The notes under the pieces: model-generated
Told to the model about the DNA's origin: nothing
Seen by the model: only the letters and a program-made list of their open reading frames with translations
The model's database searches: none
Translations under genes and position numbers: made by a program
Shown here: positions 18,701 through 41,400 of the stretch, piece by piece
Layout of the letters: every line of letters begins with the position of its first letter
Position numbering within the stretch: position 1 is the first letter of the stretch
Source: a virus
Taxonomy: Duplodnaviria > Caudoviricetes
DNA: 64,000 nucleotides
Direction: 5' to 3' (one strand)
Virus record (IMG/VR): IMGVR_UViG_2513237329_000015
Location: 1 to 64,000 of that record

Positions 18701-21700
18701 CTTGAAACATTCTCCGAGGGCGTGATCCCCTTTGGTGAGGCCATGAAGTCCTATGGAGAGGCTGTGGCCGGTATCAACGCCGACGCCGTGGAGGCATCTG
18801 GAATCGCCGCCCAGTCGTTGGCAAAACTTCAGGCCGCTTTGCCGCAGGTTGGCGGGGTCATGGAGTTCTTCACGGGAGGAAATGGTCTCGGTACATTCTC
18901 GGAGGGCATTGTGCCCTTTGGCGCGGCCATGAAATCCTATGGCGACGCCGTGGCCGGCATCAACGCCGAGGCGATCACGGCTTCTGCGGTTGCCGCCCAG
19001 TCCCTGGCCCAGCTTCAGACCGACCTGCCCAATGTGGGCGGTGTGATGACCTTCTTTGATGGCAGCAACGACCTTGGCACCTTTGCCGCGGGCATTGTCC
19101 CCTTCGGCGCGGCTATGAAGTCCTACGGAGACGCCGTGGCGGACATCAACACCGGGGCTATCACCGCCTCGGCAGTGGCGGCCCAGTCCCTGGCAAGGCT
19201 GCAAGAATCCCTTCCCCTGGCGGGCGGAGTCATGGAGTTTTTCAATGGAAGCCATGATCTGGCCGCCTTTGCCGCCGGGATCATCCCCTTCGGCGCGGCC
19301 ATGAAGTCTTACAGCGACGCTGTGGCCGACATCAATCCCACTGCCGTGGAAACTTCCGCCTCCGCCGGTCAGGCGCTGGTGGAACTGGCGAATACCTTAC
19401 CCAATACGGGCGGGCTGCTCTCCTTCTTTACGGGAGGAACCGATCTGACTGCCTTTGGAGACGACCTCACGTCCTTCGGCGCAGATCTGGCCGCCTATGC
19501 GGCGGCCATCAAGGATGTGAAGCCGGAAGCGGTAACGGCCTCGGCCAACGCTGCGAGCGCGCTTTCCAATCTGGCGACCGGCCTTCCGGACAGCAGTCTG
19601 TTCGACCAGTGGTTCGGCGGGGATCAGACGCTGGCGTCCTTTGGCGCGGATATTTCCAAATTCGGCGCCTCCATGAAGGATTACTACAATGAGATTTCCG
19701 GTATTGACCTCGGCAAGTTGTCCGACGTCATCACCCAGGTCTGGGATCTGATCGAGCTGGCGGAAGGGGTAAACGGCGTCAACACCAGCGGCCTGACCAA
19801 ATTCGCCGACAGTATGAAGAAGATGGGCGACGCCGGGATTTCCGGATTCACCGACGCCTTCTACAACTGCGGCGGCACCGTAAACAGCGCCGTGGTCAGT
19901 ATGCTGACCTCCGTCCGCGGTTCCATCACGTCGAACATCCTGGTGGCAAGCTCCGCCATGGAGATGCTTGTGGAGTCGATGGCAGGCATCGTGGATAAAA
20001 AGGTCGTTGTGATTGAAAACGCGGTTGACGGCATGATGCGGAACCTCACCGTTTCGATCCTATCATCTTCCGGCGCCGTAAAAACGGCAGCGGGGACGGT
20101 GGCATCTGCGGCCGTATCCCAAATCAACAGCATGAAACCCGAGTTTGAGACTGCCGGTGAAAATGCTGGACAGGGCTTTGTCAAAGGCGTCCACTCTAAG
20201 TTCAGCGCCTCCAGTTCCGCGGGCCGCAGTCTGGGCCTTGCCGCGCTGAACGCGGCGAAAAAGGCCCTGGACAGCCATTCTCCCTCCCGGGAGTTCATCT
20301 ATCTGGGCGAGAACATCGGTGAGGGCCTGGCCATCGGCGTCGACAACAGCATCGTCCCGGCCGCCCAGGCCACTTCCGACATGATCGGCGAGGTCATCGC
20401 CGTCAGCAACAAAGGCATCGACGCCTGGAAGGACTGGGTGGACGAGAAGACCTATTACGACGAGCTGAGTTTGAAAGACCAGCTGGCCGGATGGGAAAAC
20501 CTTCAGAAGCGGTACAAAGCCGGTTCCGAGGAGCGGAAGCAGATCGACCGGGAGGTCTATCAGCTTCAAAATGAACTGGTGGCGTCCACCTATCAGGCTT
20601 CCCTCGACTGGATCGAGGAGGAGAAATACTACAACCGGCTGAGCACCGAGGAGGAACTGGCCGCCTATGAGCGGATGCAGTCCCGGTATATGGAGGGCAG
20701 CGAGGAACGCAAGAAGATCGACCGGGAGGTCTATACCCTTCGCAACCAGCTTGTGGACGAGTCCTATCAGAACTCCATGGACTGGATCGAGAAGGAGAAG
20801 AACTACGGCCGAATGAGCCTGGCAGACGAGCTGGCCGCCTATAAGCGTGTTCGGAGCCGGTATGCGGCGGGCAGCAAAGAGCGCGAGGAGATGGACCTGA
20901 AGGTCTATCAGCTGGAACAGGAGATCTATGAGGCCCAGAAGCAGTATATCGCCGACGTCCAGAGCGTTCAGGAGTCCGCCAACCAGAAGCGCATCCAGCT
21001 GGAGCAGGAGTATGCCGACAAGGTTCGCTCTGTCAATGAGCAGCTGGAACGGGATATTCAGTCGCTGAACGACCAGTATCAGAACGCGGTGGAATCCCGC
21101 ACCAACAGTCTCTACCAGTCCTACGGCCTTTTCGATGAAGTTACAAAGAAGGAGGCCGTCAGCAGCGATACCCTGATGAAGAATCTGGAGGGGCAGGTGC
21201 AGGAGTTCGGCGAATGGCAGGATATTCTGGGCCAGCTCTCCGCCAGGGGGGTTGACGCGGACCTGATTTCCGAACTCCAGGAGATGGGGCCGTCCGCCAT
21301 CGAAGAGATCCGGGCGCTGAACTCCATGAGCGACGACGAGCTGGAGAAGTACGTCTCCCTCTGGTCCGTCAAGCACGCTCAGGCCCGGGAACAGGCCACC
21401 TCGGAGCTGGAAGGCCTCCGCGTGGAAACCCAGGAGCAGATCGCTCAGCTGCGGGCCGACGCGGAAGCGGAGTTGGAGGAATACCGCATTACCTGGCAGG
21501 AGGAATTGTCCCAGTTGGAAGAGGACACAGCCAATCAACTGGCGTCGCTCCGGCAGGAGTTCGCGGAAAACGTGGGCTTGATCAAGAAGGACACCGAGGC
21601 CGAGATGCGGGAAATGACCGAGGCGGCCACGAAGATCCTGAAGGAAGCCGGATGGACCGAGACGGGACAGCAGATCCCCGCCGGTCTTGCGGAGGGCGTC

Positions 21701-22303
21701 TCCCTGTCGAAATCCGCCTTTCTCGATGAACTGACCAGCATGGCGCTGGCCGGTGTAGAGGCGGTCAAGAGCACGCTGAAGATCAATTCTCCCTCTCGGG
21801 TCTTCCGGGAGCTAGGTAACTTTACGGGGCTTGGCTTTGTGACGGGACTGGCAGACTACGCGAAGAAGTCCTACGCCGCGGGGGCGAATGTGGCGGAGTA
21901 CGCCGCAGACGGCCTTTCCAACGCCATGTCCATCACGGCCGAGCTGCTCAGCGGGGATATGGATGCTCAGCCTACGATCCGGCCGGTCCTCGACCTCTCC
22001 GACGTAATGCGCGGGGCGGACGAGCTGAACAGCCTGTTCTATCCCCAGCGGACCATCGGCCTTGCGGGGCAGGCCAGCCTGGCCTTTTCCGAGTCCGGCC
22101 GAAGCGGCGGAACGGTGGTCAACGTGGACAACGGCGACATTGTGGAGGAGCTCCGCGCCCTTCGGAGTGAAATGGCAGAAATGACGGAGCGAATGGAACG
22201 GATGCGTGTGGTCCTGGATACCGGCACGCTGGTGGGCGAGATGGCAGGACCCATGGACAACGCCCTCGGGCAGAGGGTCACTCGCAGAGGAAGGGGGAAC
22301 TAA
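12776..22303 (+). CDS. Tape measure protein (3175 aa)
   Basis: Very long Ala/Gly-rich helical ORF; N-terminal tape-measure domain, hydrophobic repeats, two SPSR motifs; GGAGG RBS before ATG 12776. Confidence 0.93.
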   Translation: MSRTIDERIVEMRFDNRQFERNVQTSLSTLDKLRQGLDLDGAAKGLENLGDAAKKCNMSALSRSVETVRAKFSALEVVAMTTLSNITNSALNTGKRLVSALTIDPIKTGFQEYETQIGAVQTILANTQHEGTNLQQVNRALDELNTYADKTIYSFTEMTRNIGTFTAAGVNLQTSVDSIKGIANLAAISGSTSQQASTAMYQLSQALAAGRVSLMDWNSVVNAGMGGKVFQDALVRTSELLGTGAQNAINMYGSFRESLTRGEWLTTEVLTETLKQFAGAYTEADLVQQGFTEAQAKEIAQMAQTAEDTATKVKTFTQLWDTLKESARSGWTSTWEILVGDFEEAKELLTEISNTIGGVISESAQARNELLSGGLSSGWKQLLDQGIADEAGFIESIQAVARESGDAFDQMVADSDSFTDALKQGLKDGVISSETLSEAVYHLQGKMSGMSQEERKAAGYTSEMVEQIETLADSLRDGSVSMDEFTEKILRPSGRENLIQSVWNAAKGLVSVIAPIKDAFRDIFPPATSDQLYALTETLRSFSERLTISDETADKLQRTFKGLFSILDLVRQGVAAVFDAFAPLRSGMGFFVDRFLTVTATIGDFLTGINDAAKKGEVFSKVAQGIADALDFVVSGIQTFIGFLDDVFAIPGFEAFQALLGRIQTRIGQVIDAVGGLGFGVDDAVNTMDSAVGNSKFLQMLQSLFNGVKAIASGIIGVLGGLSATLIDAIGNADFSGVIDLLNGISLGGIAVGITKFMNSLTKSFDDVGSLLDNVKGILDGVRGCFEAYQTQLKAGTLLKIASAIAVLAAAIVTISLIDSGKLTASLGAITVLFAELMASMAIFSRISGEVKGVVKGTAAMIGVSTSVLLLSSALKKISDIEPEQMVVALAGIAGLMTALVAAAKVLGSGSSSVIKGSAQMVVFAGAIKMLASACIDLAQLDFAGLVKGLAGVGVLMAEVSLFTNTVKVNKGFMATAAGILVLASAMKVFASACKDFGQMNAGELVKGLSSVGAVLLEITAFTKLTGNAQGLISTGLAMIEIGAAMKIFASAMADFGGMSLAEIGKGLLAMGGALAEVAVAMKAMPKNLIATGAGLVTVGAALNVLAEALGKMGGMSWEAVAKSLVAMGGALAELAVGLNFMNGTLAGSAAMLVAASALAVLTPVLFTLGSMSWEAIAKGLISVAGAFTVIGTAGALLTPLLPTILGLGGAFALIGIGIAGLGAGLLLVGTGLTAIAVGITGLATSLGAGVTIIVAGLTSIITGIAALIPAIAQQLGEAVVAFAGVIANGAPAIGNAVKALVLTLVDVLVECVPAIANGALELIAGVLAALAAYTPQIVDSIMQFLIEVIDGLARNLPTLIQSVVNLLMSFFSGIVSALGSIDTDALLKGVAGIGLLSGIMVALGALAGLIPSAMVGVLGLGVVMAELAVVLAAIGGLAQIPGLDWLIGEGGKLLQTIGNAIGGFIGGIVGGFMSGISGSFPQIGADLAAFMTNVQPFIDGARGIDAAMLDGVKALTEAILLITAADLLEGLTSWLTGGSSLSAFAGELVPFGEAMMKFSNSIAGLDGNLVSTAAIAGKTLAEMAATLPNRGGIAGFFTGENDMGEFGNQLVGFGGSMMRFAASIKGLDADAVNNAAIAGKAMAEMAATLPNTGGAVAFFAGDNDMSAFGDQLVPFGEAIKAYSDAVTGLDVDAVKNSAIAGQAMAELAATLPNTGGAVAFFAGDNDMATFGAQLASFGVSMKNYSKSVSGLDGDAVENSAIAGKTLVELANTIPNTGGLVAFFTGDNDLETFGDQLVPFGEAMKAYSDSVTGIDGDAVTASATAAKALAELQASLPNIGGVVDFFTGGNDLETFANGLLPFGEGMKAYADSVTGLDAGAVSASITVAQALSALQASLPHVGGVLEFFTGGNDLGAFADGVLSFGLAMKAYGGAVSGIDAGAVSASAVAAQALAELQASLPNVGGIMEFFTGGNDLETFSEGVIPFGEAMKSYGEAVAGINADAVEASGIAAQSLAKLQAALPQVGGVMEFFTGGNGLGTFSEGIVPFGAAMKSYGDAVAGINAEAITASAVAAQSLAQLQTDLPNVGGVMTFFDGSNDLGTFAAGIVPFGAAMKSYGDAVADINTGAITASAVAAQSLARLQESLPLAGGVMEFFNGSHDLAAFAAGIIPFGAAMKSYSDAVADINPTAVETSASAGQALVELANTLPNTGGLLSFFTGGTDLTAFGDDLTSFGADLAAYAAAIKDVKPEAVTASANAASALSNLATGLPDSSLFDQWFGGDQTLASFGADISKFGASMKDYYNEISGIDLGKLSDVITQVWDLIELAEGVNGVNTSGLTKFADSMKKMGDAGISGFTDAFYNCGGTVNSAVVSMLTSVRGSITSNILVASSAMEMLVESMAGIVDKKVVVIENAVDGMMRNLTVSILSSSGAVKTAAGTVASAAVSQINSMKPEFETAGENAGQGFVKGVHSKFSASSSAGRSLGLAALNAAKKALDSHSPSREFIYLGENIGEGLAIGVDNSIVPAAQATSDMIGEVIAVSNKGIDAWKDWVDEKTYYDELSLKDQLAGWENLQKRYKAGSEERKQIDREVYQLQNELVASTYQASLDWIEEEKYYNRLSTEEELAAYERMQSRYMEGSEERKKIDREVYTLRNQLVDESYQNSMDWIEKEKNYGRMSLADELAAYKRVRSRYAAGSKEREEMDLKVYQLEQEIYEAQKQYIADVQSVQESANQKRIQLEQEYADKVRSVNEQLERDIQSLNDQYQNAVESRTNSLYQSYGLFDEVTKKEAVSSDTLMKNLEGQVQEFGEWQDILGQLSARGVDADLISELQEMGPSAIEEIRALNSMSDDELEKYVSLWSVKHAQAREQATSELEGLRVETQEQIAQLRADAEAELEEYRITWQEELSQLEEDTANQLASLRQEFAENVGLIKKDTEAEMREMTEAATKILKEAGWTETGQQIPAGLAEGVSLSKSAFLDELTSMALAGVEAVKSTLKINSPSRVFRELGNFTGLGFVTGLADYAKKSYAAGANVAEYAADGLSNAMSITAELLSGDMDAQPTIRPVLDLSDVMRGADELNSLFYPQRTIGLAGQASLAFSESGRSGGTVVNVDNGDIVEELRALRSEMAEMTERMERMRVVLDTGTLVGEMAGPMDNALGQRVTRRGRGN
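17537..19768 (+). repeat. About 12 degenerate tandem 186-bp (62-aa) repeats within the tape measure gene
   Basis: LPNxGGxxxFFxGxNDL...LVPFGEAMKAY... recurs at 17537, 17723 ... 19583, consistent with a 186-bp period. Confidence 0.85.
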
Positions 22304-22305
22304 GC

Positions 22306-23067
22306 TTGTACCATTCGGTTACCTTTGGGGATAAAAACACCTGGGACGACTGGCGGCTGGTTCCCGCCTCCCGCCCCGTGTTCAATCCTCCGGCCCAAAA
22401 GGTAAAGACGCTGGAAATACCCGGTGGGGACGGGGTGATCGATTTATCCCAGTCTCTCACCGGGTATCCGGTGTATCAGAACCGGACGGGCTCCATTGAG
22501 TTTATCGTGATGAATGACTTTAAGCCCTGGCACATGGCCTATTCCGACATCATGGACTATCTGCACGGCCAGAAGTTGCGGGCGATTTTGGAGGATGACC
22601 CGGAGTATTTTTACGAGGGGCGGTTCGTGGTCAACGCCTGGAAGTCGGAAAAGGACTGGTCGCGCATCACCATCGACTATGACGTGGGGCCCTACAAGTG
22701 GTCGGTTCTGTCCTCCACAGACGACTGGCTGTGGGACCCCTTCAACTTTCAAAATGGCGTGATCCGGCCGGCTCTGTTTAAGGACATCGCCGTGACCGAT
22801 GAAAAGAGGACCATCCGGCTGGAGGCCGCGCTCTTTGGGCGGGCCCCGGTGTGTCCGCAGTTCTTTGTGACCAGCTCAGACCAGAGGGGCGTACACATCC
22901 GGTTTGTCAACCCAACGCTGGGGCTGGATGAGACAAAGCTGCTCACCGACGGCACCATCCAGTTCCCGGAGTTTGTGTTCTTCGGCGGCCAGGGAGCCAC
23001 ATTGGAGCTGTGGTGCGACACCGGCACGGGCACGGTCTCGGTGGATTTCAGAGTGGGGAGGCTGTGA
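22306..23067 (+). CDS. Distal tail (Dit)-like protein
   Basis: Follows the tape measure; IPGGDGVIDLS, YLHGQK...DDPEYFYEGR. Confidence 0.75.
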   Translation: MYHSVTFGDKNTWDDWRLVPASRPVFNPPAQKVKTLEIPGGDGVIDLSQSLTGYPVYQNRTGSIEFIVMNDFKPWHMAYSDIMDYLHGQKLRAILEDDPEYFYEGRFVVNAWKSEKDWSRITIDYDVGPYKWSVLSSTDDWLWDPFNFQNGVIRPALFKDIAVTDEKRTIRLEAALFGRAPVCPQFFVTSSDQRGVHIRFVNPTLGLDETKLLTDGTIQFPEFVFFGGQGATLELWCDTGTGTVSVDFRVGRL

Positions 23068-23070: not shown

Positions 23071-25338
23071 ATGTATAGCATTTACGCGGACGGCGTGTGC
23101 ATCTACAATGATGTGTTCTCGCTGGATGACATGAAGGCGGTCAACCCTAAGCTGACGCTGGAGGACAGCGCGGCCGGGGCGCTGGAGATGGCCCTCCCCC
23201 ACACCAACAAGGCCTACGACACCATTGTCCGCATGGTCACGGATATTTCCGTGAAGAAAAACGGAGAGGAGATTTGGGCGGGGCGGGCGCTTTCGGAGAG
23301 CAAGGACTTCTGGAACAACCGGGTGCTCTATTGCGAGGGAGAACTGGCGTTTTTCAACGATTCCGTTCAGCCTCCGGCGGAGTATGCCGGAAAATCGATC
23401 CGGGAGTATCTGGAGCAGCTGATTGCCGTTCACAACTCCAAAGTCGGCGCCAACCGGCAATTTGCCATCGGCGCGGTGACGGTGGTGGATGAGAACTTCC
23501 CCACCTACTACACCAATTACGAGAAGACGATGGAGCTGCTCAACGCTCTGGTGGAAACCTATGGAGGCCATCTCCGGGTCCGGAAGGCGGATGGGGTGCG
23601 GTATCTGGATTACCTGAAGGAGTACCCCGACACTTGCAGCCAGGTCATCCAGTTTGGGTCCAATCTCATCGACTTCACCCGCAACTGGGATTCCACGGAG
23701 TATGCCACCGCCATTATCCCGCTGGGCAGCCGGCTGGATGACAGCCCCATCGAGGCGCTGGACGCCTACCTGACGGTGGAGAGCGTGAACGGCGGCAGCC
23801 TCTATGTCCAGTCGGACGAGGCGGTGAAGCACTACGGCTGGATCGCCAAGACAGTCAGCTGGGACGATGTGAGCGACCCGGAGGCGCTTCTGGAAAAGGC
23901 CAGGGAGTATCTGGCAGACCTCCAGTTCGACAACCTGGAGCTAGAGCTGAGCGCGCTGGATCTGCACTATCTGGACGTAAACACAGAGGCGGTCAAGCTG
24001 CTGGACGAGATCCGGGTCATCTCCCGCCCTCATGGCCTGGACCGGATGTTCCCGGTGACCAAGCTGGAGATCCCATTGGATCACCCGGAGAACACCCAGT
24101 TCAAAATGGGGGATTCGGTACAGGTCAGCCTGACCAGCGTGAACAATCAGACCAACGCCGCGGTGCTGGAGAAGATCGAGGGGCTTCCCAAGGCCCATTC
24201 CATTCTCAAGGAGGCCAAGGAAAACGCCACCGAGATCATCAACATGGCCACCACGGGCTACATCACCATCACCCGGGACGAGTATGGCTCGGATACGCTC
24301 TATATCTCCAACGTGCGGGACTACACCAAGGCGGACAAGCTGTGGAAGTGGAACATGAACGGCCTGGGGTACTCCAATGATGGAGGCAAGACCTTTGGGC
24401 TGGCCATGACCATGGACGGGTCCATCGTGGCTGACTACGTCAATACGGGCGTGCTCAATGCCGATGTGATCCGGGCAGGCGTGCTCAAGGACGTCAGCGG
24501 GAACTTTTCCCTGGATATGAAAACGGGTACGCTGACCATGAAGAAAGGCTCCATCAATATCGGCGGAAATTTTATCGTGGACGAGCAGGGGAATCTGACT
24601 GCGCGGCGGGGCACCTTTGCCGGAACGCTGGTAGCCGCCAAGGGCTCCTTCGGAGGCGTGGTACAGGCGGAGGATTTTCTGGACCCCTATGGAAACAGCA
24701 TGCTGACGGGCGACAAGTTCAAGGCGGATTATCTGGACCTTTACGGCCTGACCGTGAGCAACAAGAGCACGGGAGCGGTGACGTTCGCCGTGAGCTCCAA
24801 CGGTCTTGTCACCATCAACGGCAGCGTGACCATGGGAGCCGGGAGCAGCATCAACTGGGCCCAGGTAAGCAACCAGAACATCAATTCCAATCCGGCCTAT
24901 TCCATGGCCAACGACGCCTATAATCTGGCGGACGAGGCCTATGACTACGCCGACGACGCGTACTCCCGGGCCGACCGGGCGTACAAGCTGGCGGACTCCA
25001 TTGAGATGCCCGGCTACATCAAGAGTACCTATATTGACCAGACCACGATCCGTTCCCCGGTCATTGAAGGCGGAGAGTTCTACGGCGAGGAATTCAACAT
25101 CATCGCCGGGAGCGACTTTGGGAGCTTCAACCTCTACGGTCCCTATGGGAACAGCCGGTTCCACATGCTGGCCATCGAGTATTACGAGGGGGACGCCCCC
25201 TACATCGACATTTACAGCCCCTGCGGCGGCTATATCACGATTGGCAACCGGGGCAGCGGCGGTGTCGTTTTCTTTGAGGGGCATGTGGATTTCAGCGGCG
25301 CGACCGTCCGAGGTCTGGATTTTGGAACAGGAGAATAA
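23071..25338 (+). CDS. Tail-associated (Tal/endopeptidase-like) baseplate hub with C-terminal spike extension
   Basis: Follows Dit; FGSNLIDF, ATAIIPLG; C-terminal WKWNMNGLGYS/MTMDGSIVAD beta-repeats. Confidence 0.75.
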   Translation: MYSIYADGVCIYNDVFSLDDMKAVNPKLTLEDSAAGALEMALPHTNKAYDTIVRMVTDISVKKNGEEIWAGRALSESKDFWNNRVLYCEGELAFFNDSVQPPAEYAGKSIREYLEQLIAVHNSKVGANRQFAIGAVTVVDENFPTYYTNYEKTMELLNALVETYGGHLRVRKADGVRYLDYLKEYPDTCSQVIQFGSNLIDFTRNWDSTEYATAIIPLGSRLDDSPIEALDAYLTVESVNGGSLYVQSDEAVKHYGWIAKTVSWDDVSDPEALLEKAREYLADLQFDNLELELSALDLHYLDVNTEAVKLLDEIRVISRPHGLDRMFPVTKLEIPLDHPENTQFKMGDSVQVSLTSVNNQTNAAVLEKIEGLPKAHSILKEAKENATEIINMATTGYITITRDEYGSDTLYISNVRDYTKADKLWKWNMNGLGYSNDGGKTFGLAMTMDGSIVADYVNTGVLNADVIRAGVLKDVSGNFSLDMKTGTLTMKKGSINIGGNFIVDEQGNLTARRGTFAGTLVAAKGSFGGVVQAEDFLDPYGNSMLTGDKFKADYLDLYGLTVSNKSTGAVTFAVSSNGLVTINGSVTMGAGSSINWAQVSNQNINSNPAYSMANDAYNLADEAYDYADDAYSRADRAYKLADSIEMPGYIKSTYIDQTTIRSPVIEGGEFYGEEFNIIAGSDFGSFNLYGPYGNSRFHMLAIEYYEGDAPYIDIYSPCGGYITIGNRGSGGVVFFEGHVDFSGATVRGLDFGTGE

Positions 25339-28608: not shown

Positions 28609-28620
28609 ATGGCTCCGTTA

Positions 28621-28656
28621 AGGGGGATGGGGGCACAGATTCCCGTCCCCCTTTTT
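28621..28656 (+). terminator. Rho-independent terminator
   Basis: AGGGGGATGGG...CCCGTCCCCCT followed by TTTT. Confidence 0.7.
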
Positions 28657-28680
28657 ATATTTCCCGAAAGGAGCTCTCAT

Positions 28681-29070
28681 ATGGCAGAGAAACAACTCAC
28701 CACCATAGAGCAGTTACGGGCACTGGCAGAGCGAGGGAAACAGGACACCCTGATCCGCATCAACGAACTATTGGACTCGATGATCCCTCTGCTGGAAAGC
28801 GCGCAGCATGCCGGCATCACCGTCACTCTGCCGGCCGAGAAGTGGAGCGGCAGAGCTCAAACCGTGCAGGACGAGTTCCTCCTGGCTGACGGAAAATACT
28901 GGTACATTGTGTGCGCCGACGCAGACTGCTTTATGGCGGCAAGCGAGACCGGCGTAAAAGCCGATAACATTACAACGGACGGTCAGGTCACGTTCCGGTG
29001 CGAGGTCACCCCCACGGAGAACCTGACGATTTCTATTTTGCGACTGGAGGTCGAGCAGAGCAATGAGTAA
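28681..29070 (+). CDS. Small fibre adaptor-like phage protein (129 aa)
   Basis: AAGGAG RBS; C-terminal domain resembles the C-terminus of 25734-27041. Confidence 0.65.
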   Translation: MAEKQLTTIEQLRALAERGKQDTLIRINELLDSMIPLLESAQHAGITVTLPAEKWSGRAQTVQDEFLLADGKYWYIVCADADCFMAASETGVKADNITTDGQVTFRCEVTPTENLTISILRLEVEQSNE

Positions 29071-31801
29071 CGCTAACGTCGGCAAGGTTTTCAACATGAC
29101 CGGCGGCAACGGTGGCGGCGGCGCTCTGAAGCTGGAGACCCTGGCAATTACCAAGCAGCCCAACAAGACAATCTATAAGTCCGGGGAGTCCTTTGACCCG
29201 ACCGGCATGGTGGTCACGGCGGGCTATGGGTACGGTCTTACTTCAGACGTGACCGGCTACACCGTTTCGCCTCAGGTTCTGACGGATGGGGTCACGGAGG
29301 TGACCATTACTTACACGGAGGGGCGGATCACCAAGACGGCCAGCGTACCCGTGACAGTGAAGAAGGTGCTGGTGTCCATCGCCATCACGGCAAACCCGAC
29401 AAAGATGACATACCAGTATCTGGAGACCTTTGATCCGGCCGGAATGGTGGTCACAGCCACTTATTCGGACGAATCCTCGGAGGAAGTCTCCGGATACACC
29501 CACTCCCCGGACGCGTTCTCCGCACTGGGGCAGCAGGCAGTGCAGATCCAGTACGCCTACGAGGGCGTGACCAAGACCGCAAGCCTGACGGTGACGGTGA
29601 ACCCCATCGAGGTGGCCGTCCCGGTTCAAAATGGAGTTCTGACCTATGACGGAGAGACCAAGACGCCGGCGTGGACCGGATATGACACCGGAAAGATGAC
29701 CATTTCCGGAGAAACCAATGGCGTCAATGCAGGCACCTATTCCGCCAAGTTTGTTCTGGACTATGGCTATGTATTCCCCGGAGGGCAGAATGAGGCGACC
29801 GTAAGCTGGGTCATCGACCGGGCGGTCATCGCTTCGCCGCCGAAGCAGAGCAATGCGCTGGCGGCCAATGGAAAGCCCCAGTCCCCCACCTGGGACAACT
29901 ATGACACCAGCAAGCTGACCATCGGCGGAGAGCGGTTCGGCACAGAGGCCAAGGACTATACCGCCACCTTTACCCCCACGCCCAACTACAAGTGGTGGGA
30001 CGGCTCCACCGGGGCCAAGGAGGTCATCTGGACCATCACCAGCGTCATCGTACCCATCCCGGTGCAGAAGGGCTCTCCCGTTTATACGGGCGCGCCGCAG
30101 ACGCCAGAGTGGGACAACTTTGACCAGGAGAATTCCTCGGTATCGGTGACACCCCAGACCAACGCGGGCACCCATACCGCCACCTTTACCCTGCTGAAAG
30201 GCATGTGGTCGGACGGCACCACCGGGAAGAAGACGGTAAACTGGACCATTGGCCGGGCCAGCCTGGCGGCGGTGCCAAAGCAGAGCAGCGTGCCGAAGTA
30301 CGACGGCAACCCCAAGACCCCGTCCTGGGACAGCAACTATGACAGCAATAAGATGACTGTTTCGGTGGAGCCCCAAATCAACGCCGGGACGGGATACACC
30401 GCCACCTTTACACCGGACTCCAACCATCAGTGGTGGGACGGCGAAGTGGGCGGCAAGACCGCGACCTGGTCCATCGCCAAGGGCGATCAGGTGGTGACGG
30501 TAAACCCCGCGGCTGTGACCCTGAACACCAGCGCCCGAAGCGCCAAATTCACGGTGACCCGGAAAGGGGACGGTGTGATCTCCGCCATCTCCAACAATCA
30601 GAGTGTGGCTACCGTGAGCAACGTCAATCAGATCACGGGGGAGGTGACGGTGAACAGTGTAAAGGACACCACAGGCACCACCACAATTACCGTCAAGGTG
30701 GCAGAGGGGGGCAACTATCTGGCCGGCGCGGACAAGCAGGTACAGGTCAAGGCTCAGTTCGTCACCATCTACGGCGTGGAGTGGGATTGGACCAGCAGCG
30801 GCTCCACCAAGGGAAAGCGCACGGACGGGGCGACCGGGTTCGGCGACCCCAATCCGGCAGTGAATAATGGCTCCGGCTCCTCTCCATTTGACAACCTGTA
30901 CCCGTGGAGGGACATGACCAAGGTTACCCGGACCGGTGGTGTGATGGTGAAGGAGCCCAAGTATTGGTTCAAGTGGACCAAGACGGGGAAGAAGTTGAAG
31001 CTGCAAATCGCGGACGGCCCTGTTGAGGGGTTCCATGTGGACCCTGTGAATATGGATCGGGGCGATGGCTTGGGCGAGCTGGATCACTCCTACATCGGCC
31101 GGTACCACTGCGGCTCCAACTGGAAATCGGAGACCAATCAGGCGCAGATGGTCAACATCACCCGTTCCATTGCCCGCACCAATATCCACAATCTGGGGAC
31201 GAACATCTGGCAGATGGACTTTGCCCAGTTCTGGTATGTGAATATGCTGTTCCTGGTGGAATTCGCGGACTGGAACGGTGAGCGCATCGGCCTGGGCTGT
31301 TCGGCCAGCGGCTCCAGGGAAAACAACGGAAAGACGGACGCCATGAAATACCACACGGGAACCACGGCGGTCAACCGGAATTCCTATGGGTTCTGCCAGT
31401 ACCGGAATATCGAGGGTTGGTGGGACAACGTGTACGACTGGATGGACGGGTGCTACTACAATGCCAATGGCCTGAATGTCATCAAGAATCCCAATCAGTT
31501 CAGTGACAATGCCAACGGGGTTCTGGTGGGCAAGCCAACCAGCGGCTACCCCAGCGATTTCGCCATCCCGACTCAAAGCGGCCTGGAGTGGGCGCTTTAC
31601 CCCTCCGAATCCTCTGGCAGTACTACAACTTGTGTCCCGGATAGCTGGGATTTCAACGGTAGTAACCCGTGCCTGCGCCATGGCGGTTGCTATAGCCAGG
31701 GCCAGAGTCACGGGCCTTTCTGCGTGTACTTCTACAGCGCGTCGTACTCCTACTCCTTCATCGGCTGTCGCCTCCAGGAGCGCCCGCCGAAGGCGGCGTG
31801 A
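29063..31801 (+). CDS. DGR target: multi-Ig-like-domain receptor-binding/adhesin protein with C-terminal variable (CLec-type) domain
   Basis: Two Ig-like (Big_3-type) repeats (P.K..Y..GE.FDPTGMVVTA.Y), further beta-repeats, C-terminal YRNIEGWWDNVYDWMDG...IGCRLQ containing the VR. Confidence 0.9.
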   Translation: MSNANVGKVFNMTGGNGGGGALKLETLAITKQPNKTIYKSGESFDPTGMVVTAGYGYGLTSDVTGYTVSPQVLTDGVTEVTITYTEGRITKTASVPVTVKKVLVSIAITANPTKMTYQYLETFDPAGMVVTATYSDESSEEVSGYTHSPDAFSALGQQAVQIQYAYEGVTKTASLTVTVNPIEVAVPVQNGVLTYDGETKTPAWTGYDTGKMTISGETNGVNAGTYSAKFVLDYGYVFPGGQNEATVSWVIDRAVIASPPKQSNALAANGKPQSPTWDNYDTSKLTIGGERFGTEAKDYTATFTPTPNYKWWDGSTGAKEVIWTITSVIVPIPVQKGSPVYTGAPQTPEWDNFDQENSSVSVTPQTNAGTHTATFTLLKGMWSDGTTGKKTVNWTIGRASLAAVPKQSSVPKYDGNPKTPSWDSNYDSNKMTVSVEPQINAGTGYTATFTPDSNHQWWDGEVGGKTATWSIAKGDQVVTVNPAAVTLNTSARSAKFTVTRKGDGVISAISNNQSVATVSNVNQITGEVTVNSVKDTTGTTTITVKVAEGGNYLAGADKQVQVKAQFVTIYGVEWDWTSSGSTKGKRTDGATGFGDPNPAVNNGSGSSPFDNLYPWRDMTKVTRTGGVMVKEPKYWFKWTKTGKKLKLQIADGPVEGFHVDPVNMDRGDGLGELDHSYIGRYHCGSNWKSETNQAQMVNITRSIARTNIHNLGTNIWQMDFAQFWYVNMLFLVEFADWNGERIGLGCSASGSRENNGKTDAMKYHTGTTAVNRNSYGFCQYRNIEGWWDNVYDWMDGCYYNANGLNVIKNPNQFSDNANGVLVGKPTSGYPSDFAIPTQSGLEWALYPSESSGSTTTCVPDSWDFNGSNPCLRHGGCYSQGQSHGPFCVYFYSASYSYSFIGCRLQERPPKAA
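31633..31773 (+). repeat. DGR variable repeat (VR)
   Basis: 141-bp ungapped match to 31959-32099; all 18 mismatches lie opposite TR adenines. Confidence 0.97.
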
Positions 31802-31864
31802 CTTATTCCCCTGTAGAGGAGGGGGTTTGGGGTGAGGGGACCGCAGTCCCTTCCCCCAACCTCC
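31784..31864 (+). promoter_or_regulatory. Hairpins downstream of VR (candidate DGR target-recognition cruciform)
   Basis: CCGCC-GAA-GGCGG (31784-31796) and GGGAC-CGCA-GTCCC core (31837-31850) with imperfect G-rich/C-rich extended arms; absent downstream of TR. Confidence 0.6.
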
Positions 31865-31958
31865 GCCTTATAAAAATTCAAAATGGAGCGATTTTGCTCT
31901 AATAAACCGCTTTTCCTTTGGTAAGGGGAAAGCGCGGGGTCAACTTTGCAGCAGACGA

Positions 31959-32099
31959 TGTCCCGGATAACTGGAATTTCAACGGTAGTAACCCGTGCCT
32001 GCACCATGGCGGTAACTATAACCAGAACCAGAATCACGGGCCTTTCTACGTGAACTACAACAACGCGTCGAACTCCAACTCCAACATCGGCTGTCGCCT
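31959..32099 (+). repeat. DGR template repeat (TR)
   Basis: Adenine-bearing copy of VR with 14 AAY codons; lies between target gene and RT. Confidence 0.97.
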
Positions 32100-32320
32100 T
32101 CTTGAAGCAGACGCAGGTCGAAGGACCTGTCGGGTATGGCTAAACCTCCTTTTGGTAGTCAGGGTTCCTCACCCTTTCTATTACGCATCGTTGACCGCGC
32201 AGCACTTGCTGAAGATGAGCCGTCAGGACACAGCTTAGTACACTTCGGGCCGGGTCCCGCCCCGGAACCACCCGCGGCGATGGAACAGTTGTGAGGCTAC
32301 AAGGAGGAACACTATCCCTG

Positions 32321-33496
32321 ATGAAACGAGTTAGAATTTACCAACAAATCATTTCCGATGAAAACCTGCGTCTGGCTATTCAGGATGTCAACCGGGGACA
32401 CCGGCGCAACGGCGACCACAGCTTAAATAAGAAGGTCATGGAAATCGAGGAGCATATCGATGAATATGTGGTAAAACTCCGCAAGTTCATCGAGGACCTG
32501 GTGGCCGGGGACGAGCATATGCATAAACCGCTGCAACGGCGGAAGTGGGACCGGAACGCGGACAGCGGCAAAGGGAAATGGCGGGATATCAACGAGCCGC
32601 TCTTGTGGCCGGACCAGTATGTCCACCATGCGGTGGTGCAGCCCATGATCCCGCACATCAGGCGGAGCATGGACAAGTATTGTATCGCAAGCGTACCAGG
32701 GCGTGGCAACTCTTATGGCGTAAAGGTTTTAAAGAAATGGATGAAGAACGACCCTGTGGGCACCCAATACTGCGCGGAGTGCGATATTCACCATTGCTTT
32801 GTGGAGGTGGACCCGCCGTATGTCATCCACGCGCTGAAACGGCTGTTCAAGGATCGGGAAACGCTCTGGCTATGCGATGCGCTGATGGAGTACGGAGTCC
32901 TGATCGGCGCATTCTTCTCCGCATGGTTCCTGCATTTGCTGCTCCAACCGCTGGATCTGATGATCCACCAAAAGCAATATGGCGTGAGCCACTATCTGCG
33001 GCAGATGGACAACTTCACAATCTTCGGTCCCAATAAACGGAAACTGCGGAAGCTGCTGGAGGACATCAAAGCATGGCTGGGTGAAATCGGCATGAAACTG
33101 AAAGACACCTGGCAGATCTTCCGGGTGGGCTTTACGCCAAAGGTGGCAAAGGCCCACGGGGACTTATCCGAGAAGAAACAGCGGCACCGCCGTCCAAGAA
33201 TTCCGTCGGCATTGGGCTATCGTTTCGGGCATGGGTACACGATCCTCCGAAAGCACAATCTGTTCCGACTCAAGCAAGCGCTGCACACCTACTACCACCG
33301 GCGAGACCGGAACCGGGTCATTTCTTTTAAGCGGGCATCCGGGCTGATCTCAAGACTGGGGCAATTGCGTAAGTGCAACAGTCAGCGAATATTGGAGCGG
33401 TATTACCAGCCGAATACCATGCTCAATCTCAAGAAAGTCGTCCGAAGGGAATGTCGGCGGCTACAACGATTATATCCGCCTTATCGGGCGGCCTGA
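32321..33496 (+). CDS. DGR reverse transcriptase (non-canonical motifs)
   Basis: RT domain order: RDINEP..WPDQYVHHA, ASVPGRG, YCAECDIHHCF, GVLIGAFFSAWF, YLRQMDNF (YxDD position), ALGYRF; adjacent to TR. Confidence 0.92.
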   Translation: MKRVRIYQQIISDENLRLAIQDVNRGHRRNGDHSLNKKVMEIEEHIDEYVVKLRKFIEDLVAGDEHMHKPLQRRKWDRNADSGKGKWRDINEPLLWPDQYVHHAVVQPMIPHIRRSMDKYCIASVPGRGNSYGVKVLKKWMKNDPVGTQYCAECDIHHCFVEVDPPYVIHALKRLFKDRETLWLCDALMEYGVLIGAFFSAWFLHLLLQPLDLMIHQKQYGVSHYLRQMDNFTIFGPNKRKLRKLLEDIKAWLGEIGMKLKDTWQIFRVGFTPKVAKAHGDLSEKKQRHRRPRIPSALGYRFGHGYTILRKHNLFRLKQALHTYYHRRDRNRVISFKRASGLISRLGQLRKCNSQRILERYYQPNTMLNLKKVVRRECRRLQRLYPPYRAA

Positions 33497-33510: not shown

Positions 33511-33840
33511 ATGAAAGTACAGGGAATGGTCGATCCGGGGAAGTTCACCGTGGAGCAGATCCCGGGAACCAACCGAAGCCTTGTGCGGCTGTTTCAAAAT
33601 GTAAAACCGGCAGAAACCGAGGAGTTCACCGGATATGAGTACGACGAGTACCACGTGGAGGTGGAAACCTGGGACGGGATTGTCCGGAACGTCCGGGACA
33701 ACTATGAGGAGTTCCTGAAGAAAGGCATGGACAATGAGATCGACCTCAGCAACGAGGCTCTGTATCGTGCTCAGAAAGAGCTGGCGTCCTATGTGGAACT
33801 GGCCAATGCGATTCGGGAAGGAGTGAACGGAGTTGACTGA
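33511..33840 (+). CDS. Hypothetical phage protein (109 aa) directly downstream of the RT
   Basis: AAAGGAG RBS immediately after the RT stop codon; acidic. Confidence 0.75.
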   Translation: MKVQGMVDPGKFTVEQIPGTNRSLVRLFQNVKPAETEEFTGYEYDEYHVEVETWDGIVRNVRDNYEEFLKKGMDNEIDLSNEALYRAQKELASYVELANAIREGVNGVD

Positions 33841-35148: not shown

Positions 35149-35432
35149 TTGACCGTTCGAGCCCTGATATTGCTGGATTTTAAGTTTTTATGATAATTAC
35201 CTATAAGATAAAATCTCAACTTTTATATACAAATTCAAGCCCCTCGTGCAAAGCTATAATATCTAAATATACGCACTTACCTTTCCCTGTCCCCCAATGG
35301 GGATAGAACAGGTCGGATAAACAGTCTCCCCTAAGAAAGAACTTAGAATTGGAGGCGGGCGAAATGCCTTAGTGAAAAGAAGGGTATGAACAGAGTAAGC
35401 GTATTTTGAAGTGCGAAGGGAGCTGGAGATTT

Positions 35433-38400
35433 ATGAAGGTAAAAAGATACTGGAAAAAGATCTTATCCTTGGTACTGACGTCAGCACTCCTGCTCGGCTT
35501 GTTGCCGACTGCGGCCTTTGCCTATTCCCCGGATGAAAAAACGGATATCATTGAGTTCAAGGCTATGGTACTTGAGAATTTGACGGGCGGAACCGTATCC
35601 GAGTATCAGTACCTGACCACCGACAATACATTTTACAGCGACATCAATATGAATGGCTATACGGATGAAGATGGCGAGTATGGCTATTCTTGGACGATGC
35701 TGTCCTATACGATTGAGAAAACGCAGCCGGTCAACCTGATGCTGTACCGCATGAATGATGACACGGAGTATGTCTACGGCGACACGGTGAACCTCACCCA
35801 CTCGGAGAGCCCAGAGGCAGATGAACCGTTTATCGGAGAGTTTATCGGATATCTGCATGGCACCCCTCTGCTGGACGAGAACGGGGAACCGTTTATTGGT
35901 GATATTCCGGAAGAGGAGCTCCAGGAATTGATTTGGCAAGCCGTTTGGGGCGGCTTACCCTCAGAAACAATAAAGGAATATACCGCGTTTGGCTTCACCG
36001 GTGAGGAGTTGGATATCTCCAATGCGATAGATGCCCCAGAACCTACCGAGACGCCTACGGAGCCGAAGCCCACCGAGACGCCCACGGAGCCAGAACCTAC
36101 CGAGACGCCCACGGAGCCGGAACCCACCGAGACGCCCACGGAGCCGGAACCCACCGAGACGCCCGCGGAGCCGGAACCCACCGAGACGCCCGCGGAGCCG
36201 GAACCCACCGAGACGCCCGCGGAGCCGGAGCCCACCGAGACGCCTGCGGAACCGGAGCCCACCGAGACGCCCACGGAGCCGGAACCCAGCGAGACGCCCA
36301 CGGAGCCGGAACCCAGCGAGGATTCCGCAGATTCAGGACCTGGTGAAGTCCCCGCAGAACAAAAGGCAAGTGCAGCCCCTGTGATGCTGGAGTCCAGCGA
36401 GGAACCTGCAGAGCCGGAGCCCACCGAGACGCCCGCAGAGCCGGAGCCCACCGAGACGCCTGAAGAGCCGGAGCCCACCGAGACACCCGTAGAGTCGGAG
36501 CCCACCGAGACGCCTGCGGAGCCGGAGCCCACCGAGACGCCTGCGGAGCCGGAGCCCACCGAGATGCCCGCAGAGCCGGAGCCCATCGAGACGCCCGTAG
36601 AACCTGAGCCTACTCCAGTGGAAACAGAACCACAGGTTCCCCAATATACAGAGGCCGATGTTTTGATTGACCGGGGTGCCAATGGACTGTTTCGCGCGGA
36701 CACGGATGAGGGCGCCTATACTAAGAACTATCTCCTCTGGGATGGTCTGATCGAAACAGAAGATGGCGCTCTTACATACTGCAATCTTGAGAGCGGAAAT
36801 TATGTTATTGTCATGCAGCCTACCACTCCGGGGGCGGAAAAGTACAGGAGCTTCCTGGCTTTTTCGCAGAATTCTGAGCGGCAGGATCAGTTCCTGAACT
36901 CGGACGCTTGGAGCGAGCTGGAGGCGATGGCGGAAAAATACGGTTGGACAGTTGACCCCGTGGACCTGTTGACCGGAAGCTTCAAGTGGGAATACCAGGA
37001 TCTGGCGCTTTACGGGAAAGACGATCTTCCGTTTATCCGGTATTATAACTCGTCCGATTTTGAGGATGACCATGGCCTCGGCCTAGGCTGGAGCAGCAAC
37101 TATACCGCATTTTTGGATATTGAGAATCTCTTTGTCCGGGCCATCCTGCCAAACGGCAGGGAGCTCTATTTCAACCTCAACTTCGACGATACCTTCCGGC
37201 CGGTGGGAGACTGCACGCTGGAGTGGGCTGGCGGGGAGTTCCTGTTGAAGAACACCAGTGATGGGACAAGCTATGCCTTCACAAAGGAAGGTGATCTGGC
37301 ACGGATCGACTATTTGAATGGGAATACCGTGCAGTTTAGCTATACTGGCGATCAGCTTACCGAAATCTCGAATGCCTCCGGCAGCCTTTTGCTGGAGTAC
37401 ACTGGCGGACACATATCCAGAATTACGGACAGCACAGGCCGCAGTATCACCCTCACCTATGACGGCGATTACCTGTCCCAGGTGGATAATCCAGACGGAA
37501 ACAGCTTCTCTTATACATATGAGGACGGCTGCTTGACCGAGGTTTCCAACCTAAAGGGCGAGGTGTATGTCCAGAACGTGTATGATTCCCAGGGACGAGT
37601 CGTGCACCAGGAAGTCGCCAACATGGGTGTATTCGACTTCACGTATGATACGGACAACCGGGTCAATACCTGCACAGGTACAGACGGCTACCTGCTGGAA
37701 ATCCACTACGATGAGTTGGGACGGATTACCCGGAGCACAAATGCGGAGGGGACTGCCCGCATCACCTACAATGAGGAAAATCAGGTAACCAGTGAGACAG
37801 ACCGCGAGGGCAACACCACCCGCTATACTCACGACGAGGCGGGGAATATCTCCCGCATCACCTATCCGGACGGCACGACGGAGGACTTTGTCTATAATGA
37901 AGACCGGCTGGTTACGGAGTTTACCGACCGGAACGGCATTACCAGTTCCTATACATATGATGACAAGGGTAACGCTACCAGCCTGACCGACGGCCGCGGC
38001 AACACAATTTCCTGTGAGTATGACGCTATGGGCAATATGCTCACTCAGACAGATGCCGAAGGGAATACGACTACCTACACCTACGACGCGGTGGGAAACT
38101 GTACCTCAGTAAGGGATGCCCGCGGCAATCAGACCACTATGGAATATGACAGACAGGGCCGCCTGCTCTCCCAGATAGATGCCCAGGGCAACACCACTTC
38201 CTATGAGTATACCGATGCGGGTAAGCTCGTAAAAATGACGGACGCCCAGGGCAACGTGCAGAACTACACCGTAGACGGCAATGGCTTCAATACCAGCGAG
38301 AGCGACTGGCTGGGAAACACTACAACCAGTGAGCGCAATGCCCAGAACCAGGTCACAAAGATCACGGATCCGCTGGGCAACGCCACGACCTACTCCTATG

Positions 38401-41400
38401 ATGACCGGGGCAATATGACTGTGGCCACTGACGCCAACGGGCATTCCACCACCTATACCTACGATGCCGCGGGGCGTATGCTCTCCATGACAACCTCCAA
38501 TGGCGGTACCTGGAGCTATGGCTATGACAACGAGGGGCGGCAGATCTCCGCCACCGATCCCGCCGGCGGGACCACTACGACCCATTATGACAGTACCGGC
38601 CGCACTACTTCTACCACTGACGCCCGTGGTGCTGAGACCTCTTACACCTATGACGGTGTGGGAAATACCATCCAAACCAAAGATGCACTGGGCAACAGCA
38701 CTGTGATGGAATATGACGCCAATGGCAACTTGATCTCCCAGACCGACCGCACCGGCGCCCAAACGACCTATACCTATGACGCCAACAACCGTATGGTCAG
38801 CAGCACGGATGCGTTGGGCCAAGTTACACAGTATAGCTATGATGAGGTAGGAAATCTGATCTCTACCACTACCCCGGAAGGGAATAAATCCTCCGCGGAA
38901 TATGACGATCTGAACCGGGCAGGCTCCTCTACCGACGCTCTGAGCCGCGTGACCGCGCAGGAATATGACAGCTTGGGCCGTGTGATCAGGACCACCTATG
39001 CCGACGGCTCTAGTGTGTCCTATACTTACGATGCCAACGGGCAGGTGCTCACTGCTACGGACGAAATGGGGGGCGTGGTATCCTATACCTACGATGCCAA
39101 TGGCCGTATGCTCACTACTACCGATCCCATGGGCGGCGTTACCAGTACCACCTATGATGCGGTAGGTAATGTGCTCAGCGAAACAACCCCCATGGGCTTC
39201 ACAACCACCTATACCTACGACGGGGACAACAATGTAGCCGCCGTCACCGATGCCAATGGTGCTGCGACCTCCTATACCTATGACGCCATGGATCGGGTGA
39301 GCACCGTGACCGACCCCATGGGAGGCACCACCAGCTACACCTATGATGCCGCTGGCAATCAGAGCACGATCACCGACGCAGAGGGCGGAGTGACCCGCTA
39401 TGAGTATGACCTGCTGGGCCGCACCACTTCCATGACCGATGCCCGCGGCAATACCTGGATCTACGAATACGACAATGAGGGCCGAGCCACTGCGACTGTG
39501 GATCCGTTGAACTACTCCACATCCAAGAGTTACGACGCCATTGGCCAGCTTGTCAGCGAGACGGATGCCAACGGCAACACCTGGACCTACACCTACGATA
39601 AGGACGGCCGGCAGACATCTCAAACTGACCCGCTGGGCAATACGACGACATATGCCTACGACGCGGTGGGCAACCTCCTCACCAGCACCACGGCGTTGGG
39701 GCGAACCACCAGCTATACCTACGATGCCCGGAACCGCAAGACCAGCGAGACCGATCCTATGGGCCATGTGATCACCTTCTACTACGATGCCCTGGGGCGG
39801 CTGGTTGGAGCGGACAATAAGGATGGAACGCATGTCTCCACCACCTATGACGCCAACGGGAATACCCTGACTACCACGGACGAAGAGGGCTATGTGGTCT
39901 CCTATGTCTATGACCTGGACGGCCGTATGACGGAGATGACCAATGCCCGTGGGTACAAGACCTCCTATACCTACGACGCGGTGGGCAATCAGATTTCCAT
40001 CACCGATGCCAAGGGTGGTGTGACCAGCTCCGTCTATGATGCCAATGGCAATCTGACCTCTGAGACTGATGTGCTGGGCAATACGACCACTTATACCTAT
40101 GACAAGCTGGGCCGGCTGCTCACCATCACCGATCCCAAGGGCGGCGTGACGGCCTCGGAGTATGATGCCAACGGCAATCTGGTCAAGGCCACCGATGCGG
40201 AGGGCCATGTCATTACCTATACCTATGATGCGCTCAACCGCCTGAGCAGCTACGTGGACACCGAGGGCTACACCCACTCCTATACTTACGACGGCAACGG
40301 CAACGTTCTCACAGAGACCGACGGCCGGGGCAACACGACTACCTATACCTATGACGGCCTGAACCGGCAGGTGGGTATGACTGATGCCGAGGGCGGTGTG
40401 TCCTCCAACACCTACGATGCCGACGGCCGCCTGATCCAGACAACCAATGCGGAAGGCGCTGTGACCAAGTATATCTACGATGACTGCGACCGCGTGGTGG
40501 AGATGATCGACGCTCTGGGCAACTCCACCAAGTACACCTATGACGCGATGGACCGGGTGCTCACCGTGACAGACCCGCGCGGCGGCGTGACCACTTATAC
40601 CTACACGGACCGCGGCGACGTGGCCACCGAGACCGATGCCGAGGGCTACACCGTCTCCTATGAGTACGACGGCAATCACAATATGGTGAAGAAGACCACC
40701 GTGGACGGCGACACCACCTATGTCTATGACGAGCTGGACCGGCTGATCTCCACCACCACCCCGGACGGCAAAACCGAAAATATCGAGTACGACGGCAAGG
40801 GACAGGTGACCGCTTCCACCGATAAGGGCGGACACACCACGAAGTATGTCTATGACGCTGCCGGCAACGTGATCCAGACCATCGACGCCAAGGGCAATGT
40901 TGCGGCCTTTGAGTATGACCTGATGGGCAACCTCACAAAGGTCACCCTGCATCGTGTGGATACCCAGGACGGCGTGGACGAGTATGAGGTCACCCTGTAT
41001 GAGTACGACGGCCGGGGCCTCGTCACCAAGGTTGTGGATGCTCTGGGCAACGTGACCACCACGGAGTACGACGGCAACGGCAATATCGCAAAGGTCACCG
41101 ATGCGGACGGATATGTGACGGAATATACCTACAATGCCCTTGATATGGTGACGCATATCAACTATAACGGGGGCAAAGAGGTGTCCTATCAGTACAATGC
41201 CGTTGGCGACCTGGTGCAGATGGACGATTGGACGGGTACCAACACCTTTGAGGTGGATCTGCTCAACCGAATCACTGCGGTCACCAATGAGAAGGGCAAC
41301 AAGGTTACCTATGAGTATGATGCCACTGGAAACCAGACCAGAGTAGGCTATCCTGACGGTACCAGTGTGACCAAGACCTATGATTTGGTGGGCAACCTGG

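Follow-up and report, generated by a model that had tools for sequence, protein, structure and literature searches.

The 64,000-nt stretch of viral DNA analysed here (the window; positions 1 to 64,000 of the 97-kb IMG/VR provirus record IMGVR_UViG_2513237329_000015) carries a diversity-generating retroelement (DGR) at 29063-33496, in which the 3' end of a gene for a 912-aa phage tail protein is followed by a template repeat (TR) and a reverse transcriptase (RT) gene. The active site of the RT is unusual, with the motif QMDN in the place of YxDD. We consider it highly probable that the element is a complete and currently functional DGR, devoid of the accessory gene avd, that lies at the end of the tail genes of a siphovirus-like, temperate phage whose hosts are gut Oscillospiraceae, that its Asp-Asn (DN) enzyme is an active mutagenic polymerase, and that a change in phage tropism is the likely result. 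The parts of the element described below are all on the strand shown (+).

Differences between the two repeats are confined to template adenines

The variable repeat (VR; 31633-31773) covers codons 858-905 of the 912-aa target, and TR (31959-32099), a direct repeat of it, is non-coding and adjoins the RT gene. Upon realignment the two copies, each of 141 nt, matched without gaps and differed at 18 positions, each of them a TR adenine, with A>G in 10 cases, A>T in eight and A>C in none. Given the base composition, the probability that 18 of 18 mismatches fall on A is about 9e-11. The same pair was recovered independently as the longest direct repeat. In the frame of VR, 16 of the 39 TR adenines fall at codon position 1, 23 at position 2 and none at position 3 (p = 1.4e-7 for none out of 39); the repeat has 14 AAY codons (12 AAC and 2 AAT), and no substitution of an A turns any of its codons into a stop. 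The diversifiable codons of VR number 25 (residues 860-900), which allows about 1e23 different peptides. Homology ends in both copies with ...TCGGCTGTCGCCT, a shared 3' end that is free of A, and the flanks diverge afterwards. These properties are as a previous reading of the DNA from its letters alone (hereafter, the sequence-only reading) had described them, and the open reading frames that it had listed, at 29063-31801 (912 aa) and 32291/32321-33496, are present. By analogy, the 3' ends of VR and TR may correspond to the initiation of mutagenic homing sites (IMH and IMH*) of known elements.

VR and TR are separated by 185 nt, and the end of TR lies 221 nt from the ATG of the RT gene. Across the whole 97-kb record TR matched, at its non-A positions, only VR, and no second VR was found. 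Thus, the element has a repeat pair with differences restricted to TR adenines, one copy being within the coding sequence of a target and the other non-coding and next to an RT gene, as expected of a DGR.

Some related loci have diversified very recently

The window was compared with related loci, 79 of them on viral contigs and 40 on genome contigs. Where the DNA upstream sufficed, nearly all loci had a VR/TR pair of 135-149 nt, and its 9-24 mismatches were almost without exception at TR adenines. In every case VR ended a homologous target gene, and TR was found 130-310 nt ahead of the RT gene. In the window and its four relatives L004-L007, TR and the spacer between TR and the RT gene are 100% identical and the flanks are 99.5% identical; the VRs are 84-89% identical, and they differ at TR-A positions only. 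The most telling pair is L005 and L007, with a single difference over 8,860 nt outside VR and 20 differences within the 141-nt VR, all at TR-A positions, showing very recent diversification in genomes that bear the QMDN enzyme. Likewise, L068 and L069, which belong to a branch with YMDN enzymes, show no differences in the RT gene, none in TR and 24 in VR. The sequence-only reading had proposed a variable VR beside an invariant TR in related prophages as a test of the element, and these near-identical proviruses pass it, in assemblies rather than in reads.

The substitutions were also pooled over loci. The QMDN loci (n = 592) gave 67% A>G, 29% A>T and 4% A>C, the other DN loci (n = 712) 59%, 32% and 8%, and relatives with the canonical Asp-Asp (DD) enzymes (n = 843) 53%, 29% and 18%, respectively. 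Because A>C makes up only 4% of the QMDN pool, its absence among the 18 mismatches of the window is normal for this clade. The depletion of A>C in DN loci is only suggestive, as the spectra are post-selection states of non-independent loci.

Over 31596-32320, which holds TR, both spacers and the target end, the window is 99.5-100% identical to L005-L007, and over the adjoining RT gene (32321-33493; dS 0.31) it is only 92% identical; the cassette is a mosaic, its breakpoint being close to where the RT gene starts. Close relatives carry an orphan second VR (L005:9023-9262 and L002:3317-3527, and also L007, L008 and L051), which is absent from the record of the window; one of the carriers has an RT 100% identical to that of the window. 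The orphan, 211 bp long and with a 79-aa open reading frame, copies the 3' end of the target and is flanked on one side by the last of the genes that follow the RT gene and on the other by a tyrosine integrase gene. It shows no non-A mismatches with TR and 15-20 A mismatches, and it equals the first VR in L007 and differs from it in L005. In L004 (5087-5486), the upstream context of the orphan is joined to the downstream context of the first VR (spacer, TR and RT gene); the junction reflects either a jump in the assembly or genuine recombination across the 211-bp repeat.

A DGR-type RT with a non-canonical active site

The RT gene (32321-33496, with the ATG at 32321) codes for a protein of 391 aa that matches the RT family PHROG 1423 and is the only RT of the record. 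With a profile of 28 members of its clade, the best PDB sequence was the Bordetella DGR RT (bRT; 8ub7, E 1e-20), ahead of the RTs of group II introns. An AlphaFold2 model of the protein (mean predicted local distance difference test, pLDDT, 89.3) superposed on the active-state bRT 8ub7 with a template modelling (TM) score of 0.85 and a root-mean-square deviation of 2.8 Å. By profile and by predicted fold the protein is thus a DGR-type RT, in agreement with the sequence-only reading. The ratio of non-synonymous to synonymous changes (dN/dS) between the RT gene and its relatives is 0.05-0.13, showing that the gene is under strong purifying selection.

The protein departs from the canonical RTs at two motifs. 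In motif C (33002-33013; Q228-M-D230-N231), RQMDNF aligns opposite RYMDDI of bRT, the second Asp of YxDD being replaced by Asn and the Tyr by Gln. In motif 4 (32903-32923; I195-G-A-F-F-S-A201), IGAFFSAWF is found opposite IGSLTSQLF; the I-G and the S of the DGR signature [I/V/L]GxxxSQ are kept, and the Gln is replaced by Ala. This signature is diagnostic of DGRs and not a functional definition of them. In motif A (32777-32785; E153-C-D155), as aligned, the catalytic Asp is preceded, at a distance of two residues, by a Glu. Among the elements kept are the motif A Asp, D155, the first Asp of motif C, D230, the fingers motifs and the thumb.

The replacement in motif C is a property of the clade. 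All 78 of the viral-contig relatives that were scored have xxDN (QMDN in 54, YMDN in 21, YVDN in two and YLDN in one); motif 4 ends in SA or SS in the QMDN relatives and in SQ in the YMDN relatives. The relatives from genome contigs with a readable motif C have YMDN or YIDN, down to 36% identity. An exhaustive HMMER search returned 1,708 RT relatives, and the best-scoring representatives at 50% identity, where the motif was readable, comprised 85 DD and 21 DN enzymes. Protein clusters of the clade have up to 4,607 member sequences. In a maximum likelihood tree of 93 full-length representatives the DN enzymes were not monophyletic: the well-supported branches force at least five changes, and four DN groups have DD sisters. 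On this tree, the change of Asp to Asn arose at least about four to five times, usually together with the Glu two residues before the motif A Asp. This Glu is found in 12 of the 14 DN representatives but in only one of the 79 DD representatives, which otherwise have Lys (59) or Gln (13). The covariation, strong in raw counts, is suggestive only, since by independent contrasts it is not significant (three pairs in the same direction, none in the opposite direction and two uninformative; p 0.25).

Two further DN groups, with YVDN (L204 and L207) and HMDN (L211), flank A-mismatched VR/TR pairs; no clean pair was recovered with the filter used at the DN loci L210 and L212. Two relatives have broken RT genes, one with an in-frame stop (L116:6001-7026, in a Lawsonibacter isolate) and one with frameshifts (L103:6001-7057, in a metagenome-assembled genome, MAG, of the Clostridiaceae). 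Both look like decaying copies, and an A-mismatched VR/TR pair is still found next to them. A full-text literature search for YMDN, QMDN or YxDN motifs in DGR RTs or in RTs at large gave no relevant report, and the portions available to us of the DGR survey by Wu et al. (2018; PMC5758913) describe no active-site variant. The variant appears to be unreported.

The target is a tail-module protein that ends in a predicted C-type-lectin-like domain

The target gene (29063-31801) matches Pfam Big_3 and the 'tail protein' families PHROG 37900 and phrog_5302. The protein comprises two N-terminal, immunoglobulin (Ig)-like Big_3 domains, found by Pfam as two stretches, four repeats of about 72 aa, one further beta domain and the C-terminal variable domain. 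The four repeats are visible in the DNA as repeats of 213-225 nt, and their kinship to Ig-like or MBG-like domains rests on weak leads from a language-model atlas (Big_2/Ig_Eae/MBG, 0.83-0.87). Thus, the sequence-only reading, which had called the target an Ig-repeat protein, holds firmly for the two Big_3 domains and as a weak lead for the central repeats. By sequence, the N-terminal 572 aa had no meaningful match in the PDB.

Neither Pfam nor NCBIfam assigned a family to the variable domain, even at E 10, and at that threshold Pfam gave no FGE-sulfatase match; its fold was therefore predicted by modelling. We aligned the last 340 aa of the target (30779-31798), with VR at their end, to 40 homologous target ends translated from the related loci, and the resulting AlphaFold2 model had a pLDDT of 92.9. 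Foldseek found three significant matches to it in the PDB, all of them chains of TaqVP (5vf4, E 1.6e-7), followed by Mtd, PvdO, FGE and TvpA. With VIA-align the Z score was 22.8 for TaqVP (250 residues, 3.0 Å), about 12 for Mtd and 11.3 for TvpA. These structural matches confirm, at the level of the model, the C-type-lectin-like (or FGE-like) fold that the sequence-only reading had expected; the domain is predicted to have the fold of the DGR variable proteins, with VR at the C-terminal end. TaqVP of Thermus aquaticus, the best structural match, shares its C-type-lectin fold and its C-terminal VR with the target; the two are only 14% identical, however, and TaqVP is encoded on a bacterial chromosome and is not carried by the Ig-like stalk of a phage tail protein.

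The gene order bears out the phage setting that the sequence-only reading had given the element. Upstream of the target and on the same strand are the genes for the large terminase subunit TerL (1138-2883), the portal (4459-5712), the head protease/capsid (5699-7600), the major tail protein (8265-9296), the tape measure protein (12755-22300), Dit (22306-23064) and Tal (23071-25335). Two genes for tail or fibre proteins separate Tal from the target, which is the final large gene of this siphovirus-type tail module. In genome assemblies, the RT has its relatives almost exclusively among gut Oscillospiraceae and other Clostridia, the named hosts being Lawsonibacter, Oscillibacter, Dysosmobacter, Butyricicoccus pullicaecorum DSM 23266 and Bacterium D16-76. 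A megablast search with the cassette against a phage collection gave no match.

An accessory-free arrangement with an RT-18 spacer

The sequence-only reading had likened the element to the DGR of the Bordetella phage BPP-1 in its architecture. This did not hold, as no match to avd (PF05635/TIGR02436) was found in the interval from VR to TR or elsewhere in the 97-kb record; in the related loci, the gaps of 120-380 nt between VR and TR leave no room for a gene. The order target-TR-RT, with no accessory gene, is architecture A of Wu et al. (2018; PMC5758913), which made up 29% of the 372 elements in their survey and for which Avd-independent retrohoming was inferred. Hence, the layout departs from that of BPP-1 and is not new. 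What sets the window apart from those accessory-free DGRs, among them the avd-less Lineage 3 of that survey, is the change in the catalytic motif of the RT, for which the same portions of the survey have no counterpart. Five host genomes with this type of DGR were inspected for Avd; two are without any homologue and three have an Avd-like gene only on another contig. The small genes that flank the cassette were considered as accessory factors and rejected, on weak evidence: neither matches Avd, the homologues of 33511-33840 are found only in the loci of the QMDN lineage, and those of 28609-29070, a gene that resembles the neighbouring tail protein gene, only in some more distant loci. No sigma-70-like promoter was found for a transcript with TR and the RT gene.

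The spacer between TR and the RT gene (32100-32320, 221 nt) would be part of the presumed DGR RNA. It holds a match to the RT-18 RNA motif (Rfam RF03021; 32200-32306) that covers the whole model (positions 1-84) and scores 68.5 bits, against a gathering threshold of 41.3, and the 3' end of the motif is the Shine-Dalgarno sequence of the RT gene. RT-18 was found in the same position in all 14 diverse DN loci and in nine of 16 DD relatives, that is, in 24 of 31 loci when the window is counted. Nine DGR RTs with YxDD (L125, L130, L169, L175, L178, L184, L187, L192 and L194) have RT-18 about 10-120 nt upstream. Because it also precedes these enzymes, RT-18 is a trait of the wider lineage and not one of the DN enzymes alone; and because it is always found here between TR and a DGR RT gene, its position marks it as the TR-RT spacer element in DGRs of this lineage. 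When RT-18 was published by Weinberg et al. (2017; PMC5737381), it was given no function; only RT-10, the spacer of BPP-1, was tied to a DGR, with speculation on the others. An orphan Rfam family is thereby given a biological context, by its position.

Two GC-rich hairpins follow VR. The smaller one (31781-31798, in a fold of the DNA) has a CGCC-GAA-GGCG core, lies 8 nt past VR and overlaps the last codons of the target; an analogue of it, across the stop codon, was seen in the 18 loci folded. The long one (31817-31868), 3' of the stop codon of the target, folds with -27 kcal/mol (z -2.3) around an 8-bp stem (31834-31841/31846-31853) with the 4-nt loop CGCA. Downstream of VR, each of the 18 loci has a GC stem of 8 bp that carries a 4-nt loop, with differing stem sequences. 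Retrohoming of BPP-1 needs a hairpin/cruciform with a GC stem of 7-10 bp and a 4-nt GRNA loop, 4-34 nt from VR, and such hairpins are described for other phage DGRs too (Guo, 2011; PMC3240598). By analogy, the hairpin at 31817-31868 is a candidate for the structure that marks the target for recognition, and it may be a terminator too. Loops of the type C-GAA-G or CGCA recur in the hairpins at 31781-31798, 31834-31853 and 32112-32127, and the same loop types are found in relatives.

The BPP-1 DGR (mtd-VR, avd, TR, brt) is among the nearest analogues of the element. Both elements are borne by a phage, and in both VR ends a gene of the tail-fibre type with a C-type-lectin fold, TR is just upstream of the RT gene with a structured spacer RNA in between, and a GC-rich hairpin follows VR. 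Mutagenesis is adenine-specific in both, with the TR adenines only at codon positions 1 and 2 (AAY codons), and bRT is the best structural match of the RT. The RT of the window differs, however, in having QMDN instead of YMDD, SA instead of SQ and a basic C-terminal extension of about 60 aa. Furthermore, the spacer RNA is RT-18 and not RT-10, the hairpin has a different loop and is further from VR, and the 912-aa target has an Ig-like stalk and a variable domain closer to TaqVP than to Mtd.

Genes around and beyond the cassette

Two observations concern the tail module itself. The tape measure protein, with 3,182 aa, is very long, and a 451-aa protein with endolysin-like domains is encoded within the block of tail genes, upstream of the tape measure gene (10358-11713). 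Downstream of the cassette, homology to the closest relatives (L002, L005 and L006) ends at 35188, where in these the orphan VR and the integrase gene come next. Beyond this point the window has a gene for an Rhs/YD toxin with a signal peptide (35406-43718), genes for two WG-repeat/SLH proteins, a helicase gene and a gene resembling that for the beta subunit of DNA polymerase III. The interval 35188-35406 may be a module junction or an attachment (att) site.

Proposed mechanism and alternatives

In the model that we favour, a transcript with TR, the 221-nt RT-18 spacer and probably the RT open reading frame would be bound by the RT, which would copy TR into complementary DNA (cDNA) and misincorporate opposite adenines. 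The cDNA would then replace VR at the 3' end of the gene for the 912-aa protein, the A-free end shared by the two repeats and the hairpins just past VR presumably guiding its integration. As many as about 1e23 variants could arise in this manner, with the 25 codons mapping to the ligand-binding face of a TaqVP/Mtd-like domain that a stalk of Ig-like domains would display. Most likely, the host-surface receptor or glycan bound by the phage would be altered, and we share with the sequence-only reading the suggestion that tropism may be switched through the C-terminal domain of the target. In this model, the QMDN enzyme itself would make the cDNA, without Avd, from the TR/RT-18 RNA.

Several points weigh against this view. 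HIV-1 RT needs both Asp residues of its YMDD motif for activity, and an Asn there is unexpected in an active RT. Activity of the DGR is deduced from differences between assemblies, and it is only by gene position and fold that the target is predicted to bind receptors and to be located in the virion. It is possible that an accessory factor is encoded elsewhere, as in three of the five host genomes another contig holds an Avd-like gene. Finally, the long hairpin has a CGCA and not a GRNA loop, and its distance from VR, 60 nt, is outside the reported range of 4-34 nt. With regard to the first of these points, the RNA-dependent RNA polymerases of non-segmented negative-strand RNA viruses use GDN, so that a D-N motif C does not, in general, preclude polymerase activity.

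The DGR could also be functional and yet diversify a protein that does not bind the host receptor, such as a decorative or adhesive fibre for gut glycans or mucus, or a protein of the lysogen. Stalks with Ig-like or MBG-like domains are typical of adhesins, Tal and proteins resembling tail fibres are encoded separately upstream, and the evidence for a role of the target in receptor binding is indirect. However, the gene of the target is the final large one in the tail module, where side fibres and receptor-binding proteins are found, the protein matches tail protein families of PHROG, and Mtd, its closest functional analogue, is a tropism determinant. We regard such a role for the target as unlikely, yet worth keeping in mind.

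Another polymerase or RT, of the host or of a co-resident phage, might do the polymerisation, with the QMDN protein as an RNA-binding or targeting subunit of an otherwise active element. The non-canonical active site and the lack of an accessory protein in cis would fit this idea, as would the fact that several DGRs per host are common (one MAG gave three of the loci, L082, L099 and L101). Nevertheless, we find it improbable: the two catalytic Asp residues of motifs A and C, the fingers motifs and the thumb are kept in a model that superposes on the active state of bRT, TR, RT-18 and the RT gene are linked in cis in more than 100 loci from many hosts, and the two genomes with this DGR type that have no Avd homologue are those of isolates. 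That the element is instead a recently dead relic, with an inactive QMDN RT and VR differences frozen since the time of an ancestral YxDD enzyme, as the replaced second catalytic Asp and the broken RT genes of L116 and L103 might suggest, is hardly credible in view of the very recent divergence of the L005 and L007 VRs in QMDN-bearing genomes, the retention of xxDN in every relative with a readable motif C, down to 36% identity, the low dN/dS of the RT gene and the repeated origin of DN, each time beside A-mismatched VR/TR pairs.

Implications if the DN enzyme is active

If, as we favour, the DN enzymes are active polymerases, one tentative explanation, which we think possible although rather doubtful, is that a relocated carboxylate, the Glu before the motif A Asp, keeps them active, and that the alternative site tunes the spectrum of adenine misincorporation. 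On the same tentative footing, the QMDN/SA enzymes would show that the Tyr of YxDD and the SQ of motif 4 are dispensable for adenine mutagenesis or for Avd-free retrohoming.

The DGR itself is ordinary for a gut prophage, thousands being known from gut phages, and the motifs of the RT are its sole unusual feature. The clade amounts to a natural experiment on the enzyme, in which abundant RTs keep diversifying their targets with YxDN or QMDN and without Avd and, in the QMDN subclade, also without SQ. If the DN enzyme is confirmed to be active, motif-based filters for 'functional' RTs and for DGR RTs will need to be relaxed. It would also offer a handle on the relationship between low catalytic efficiency and adenine mutagenesis, as discussed for bRT (PMC7826257), and a compact system of a single protein and an RNA, RT-18, for the development of tools for targeted mutagenesis.

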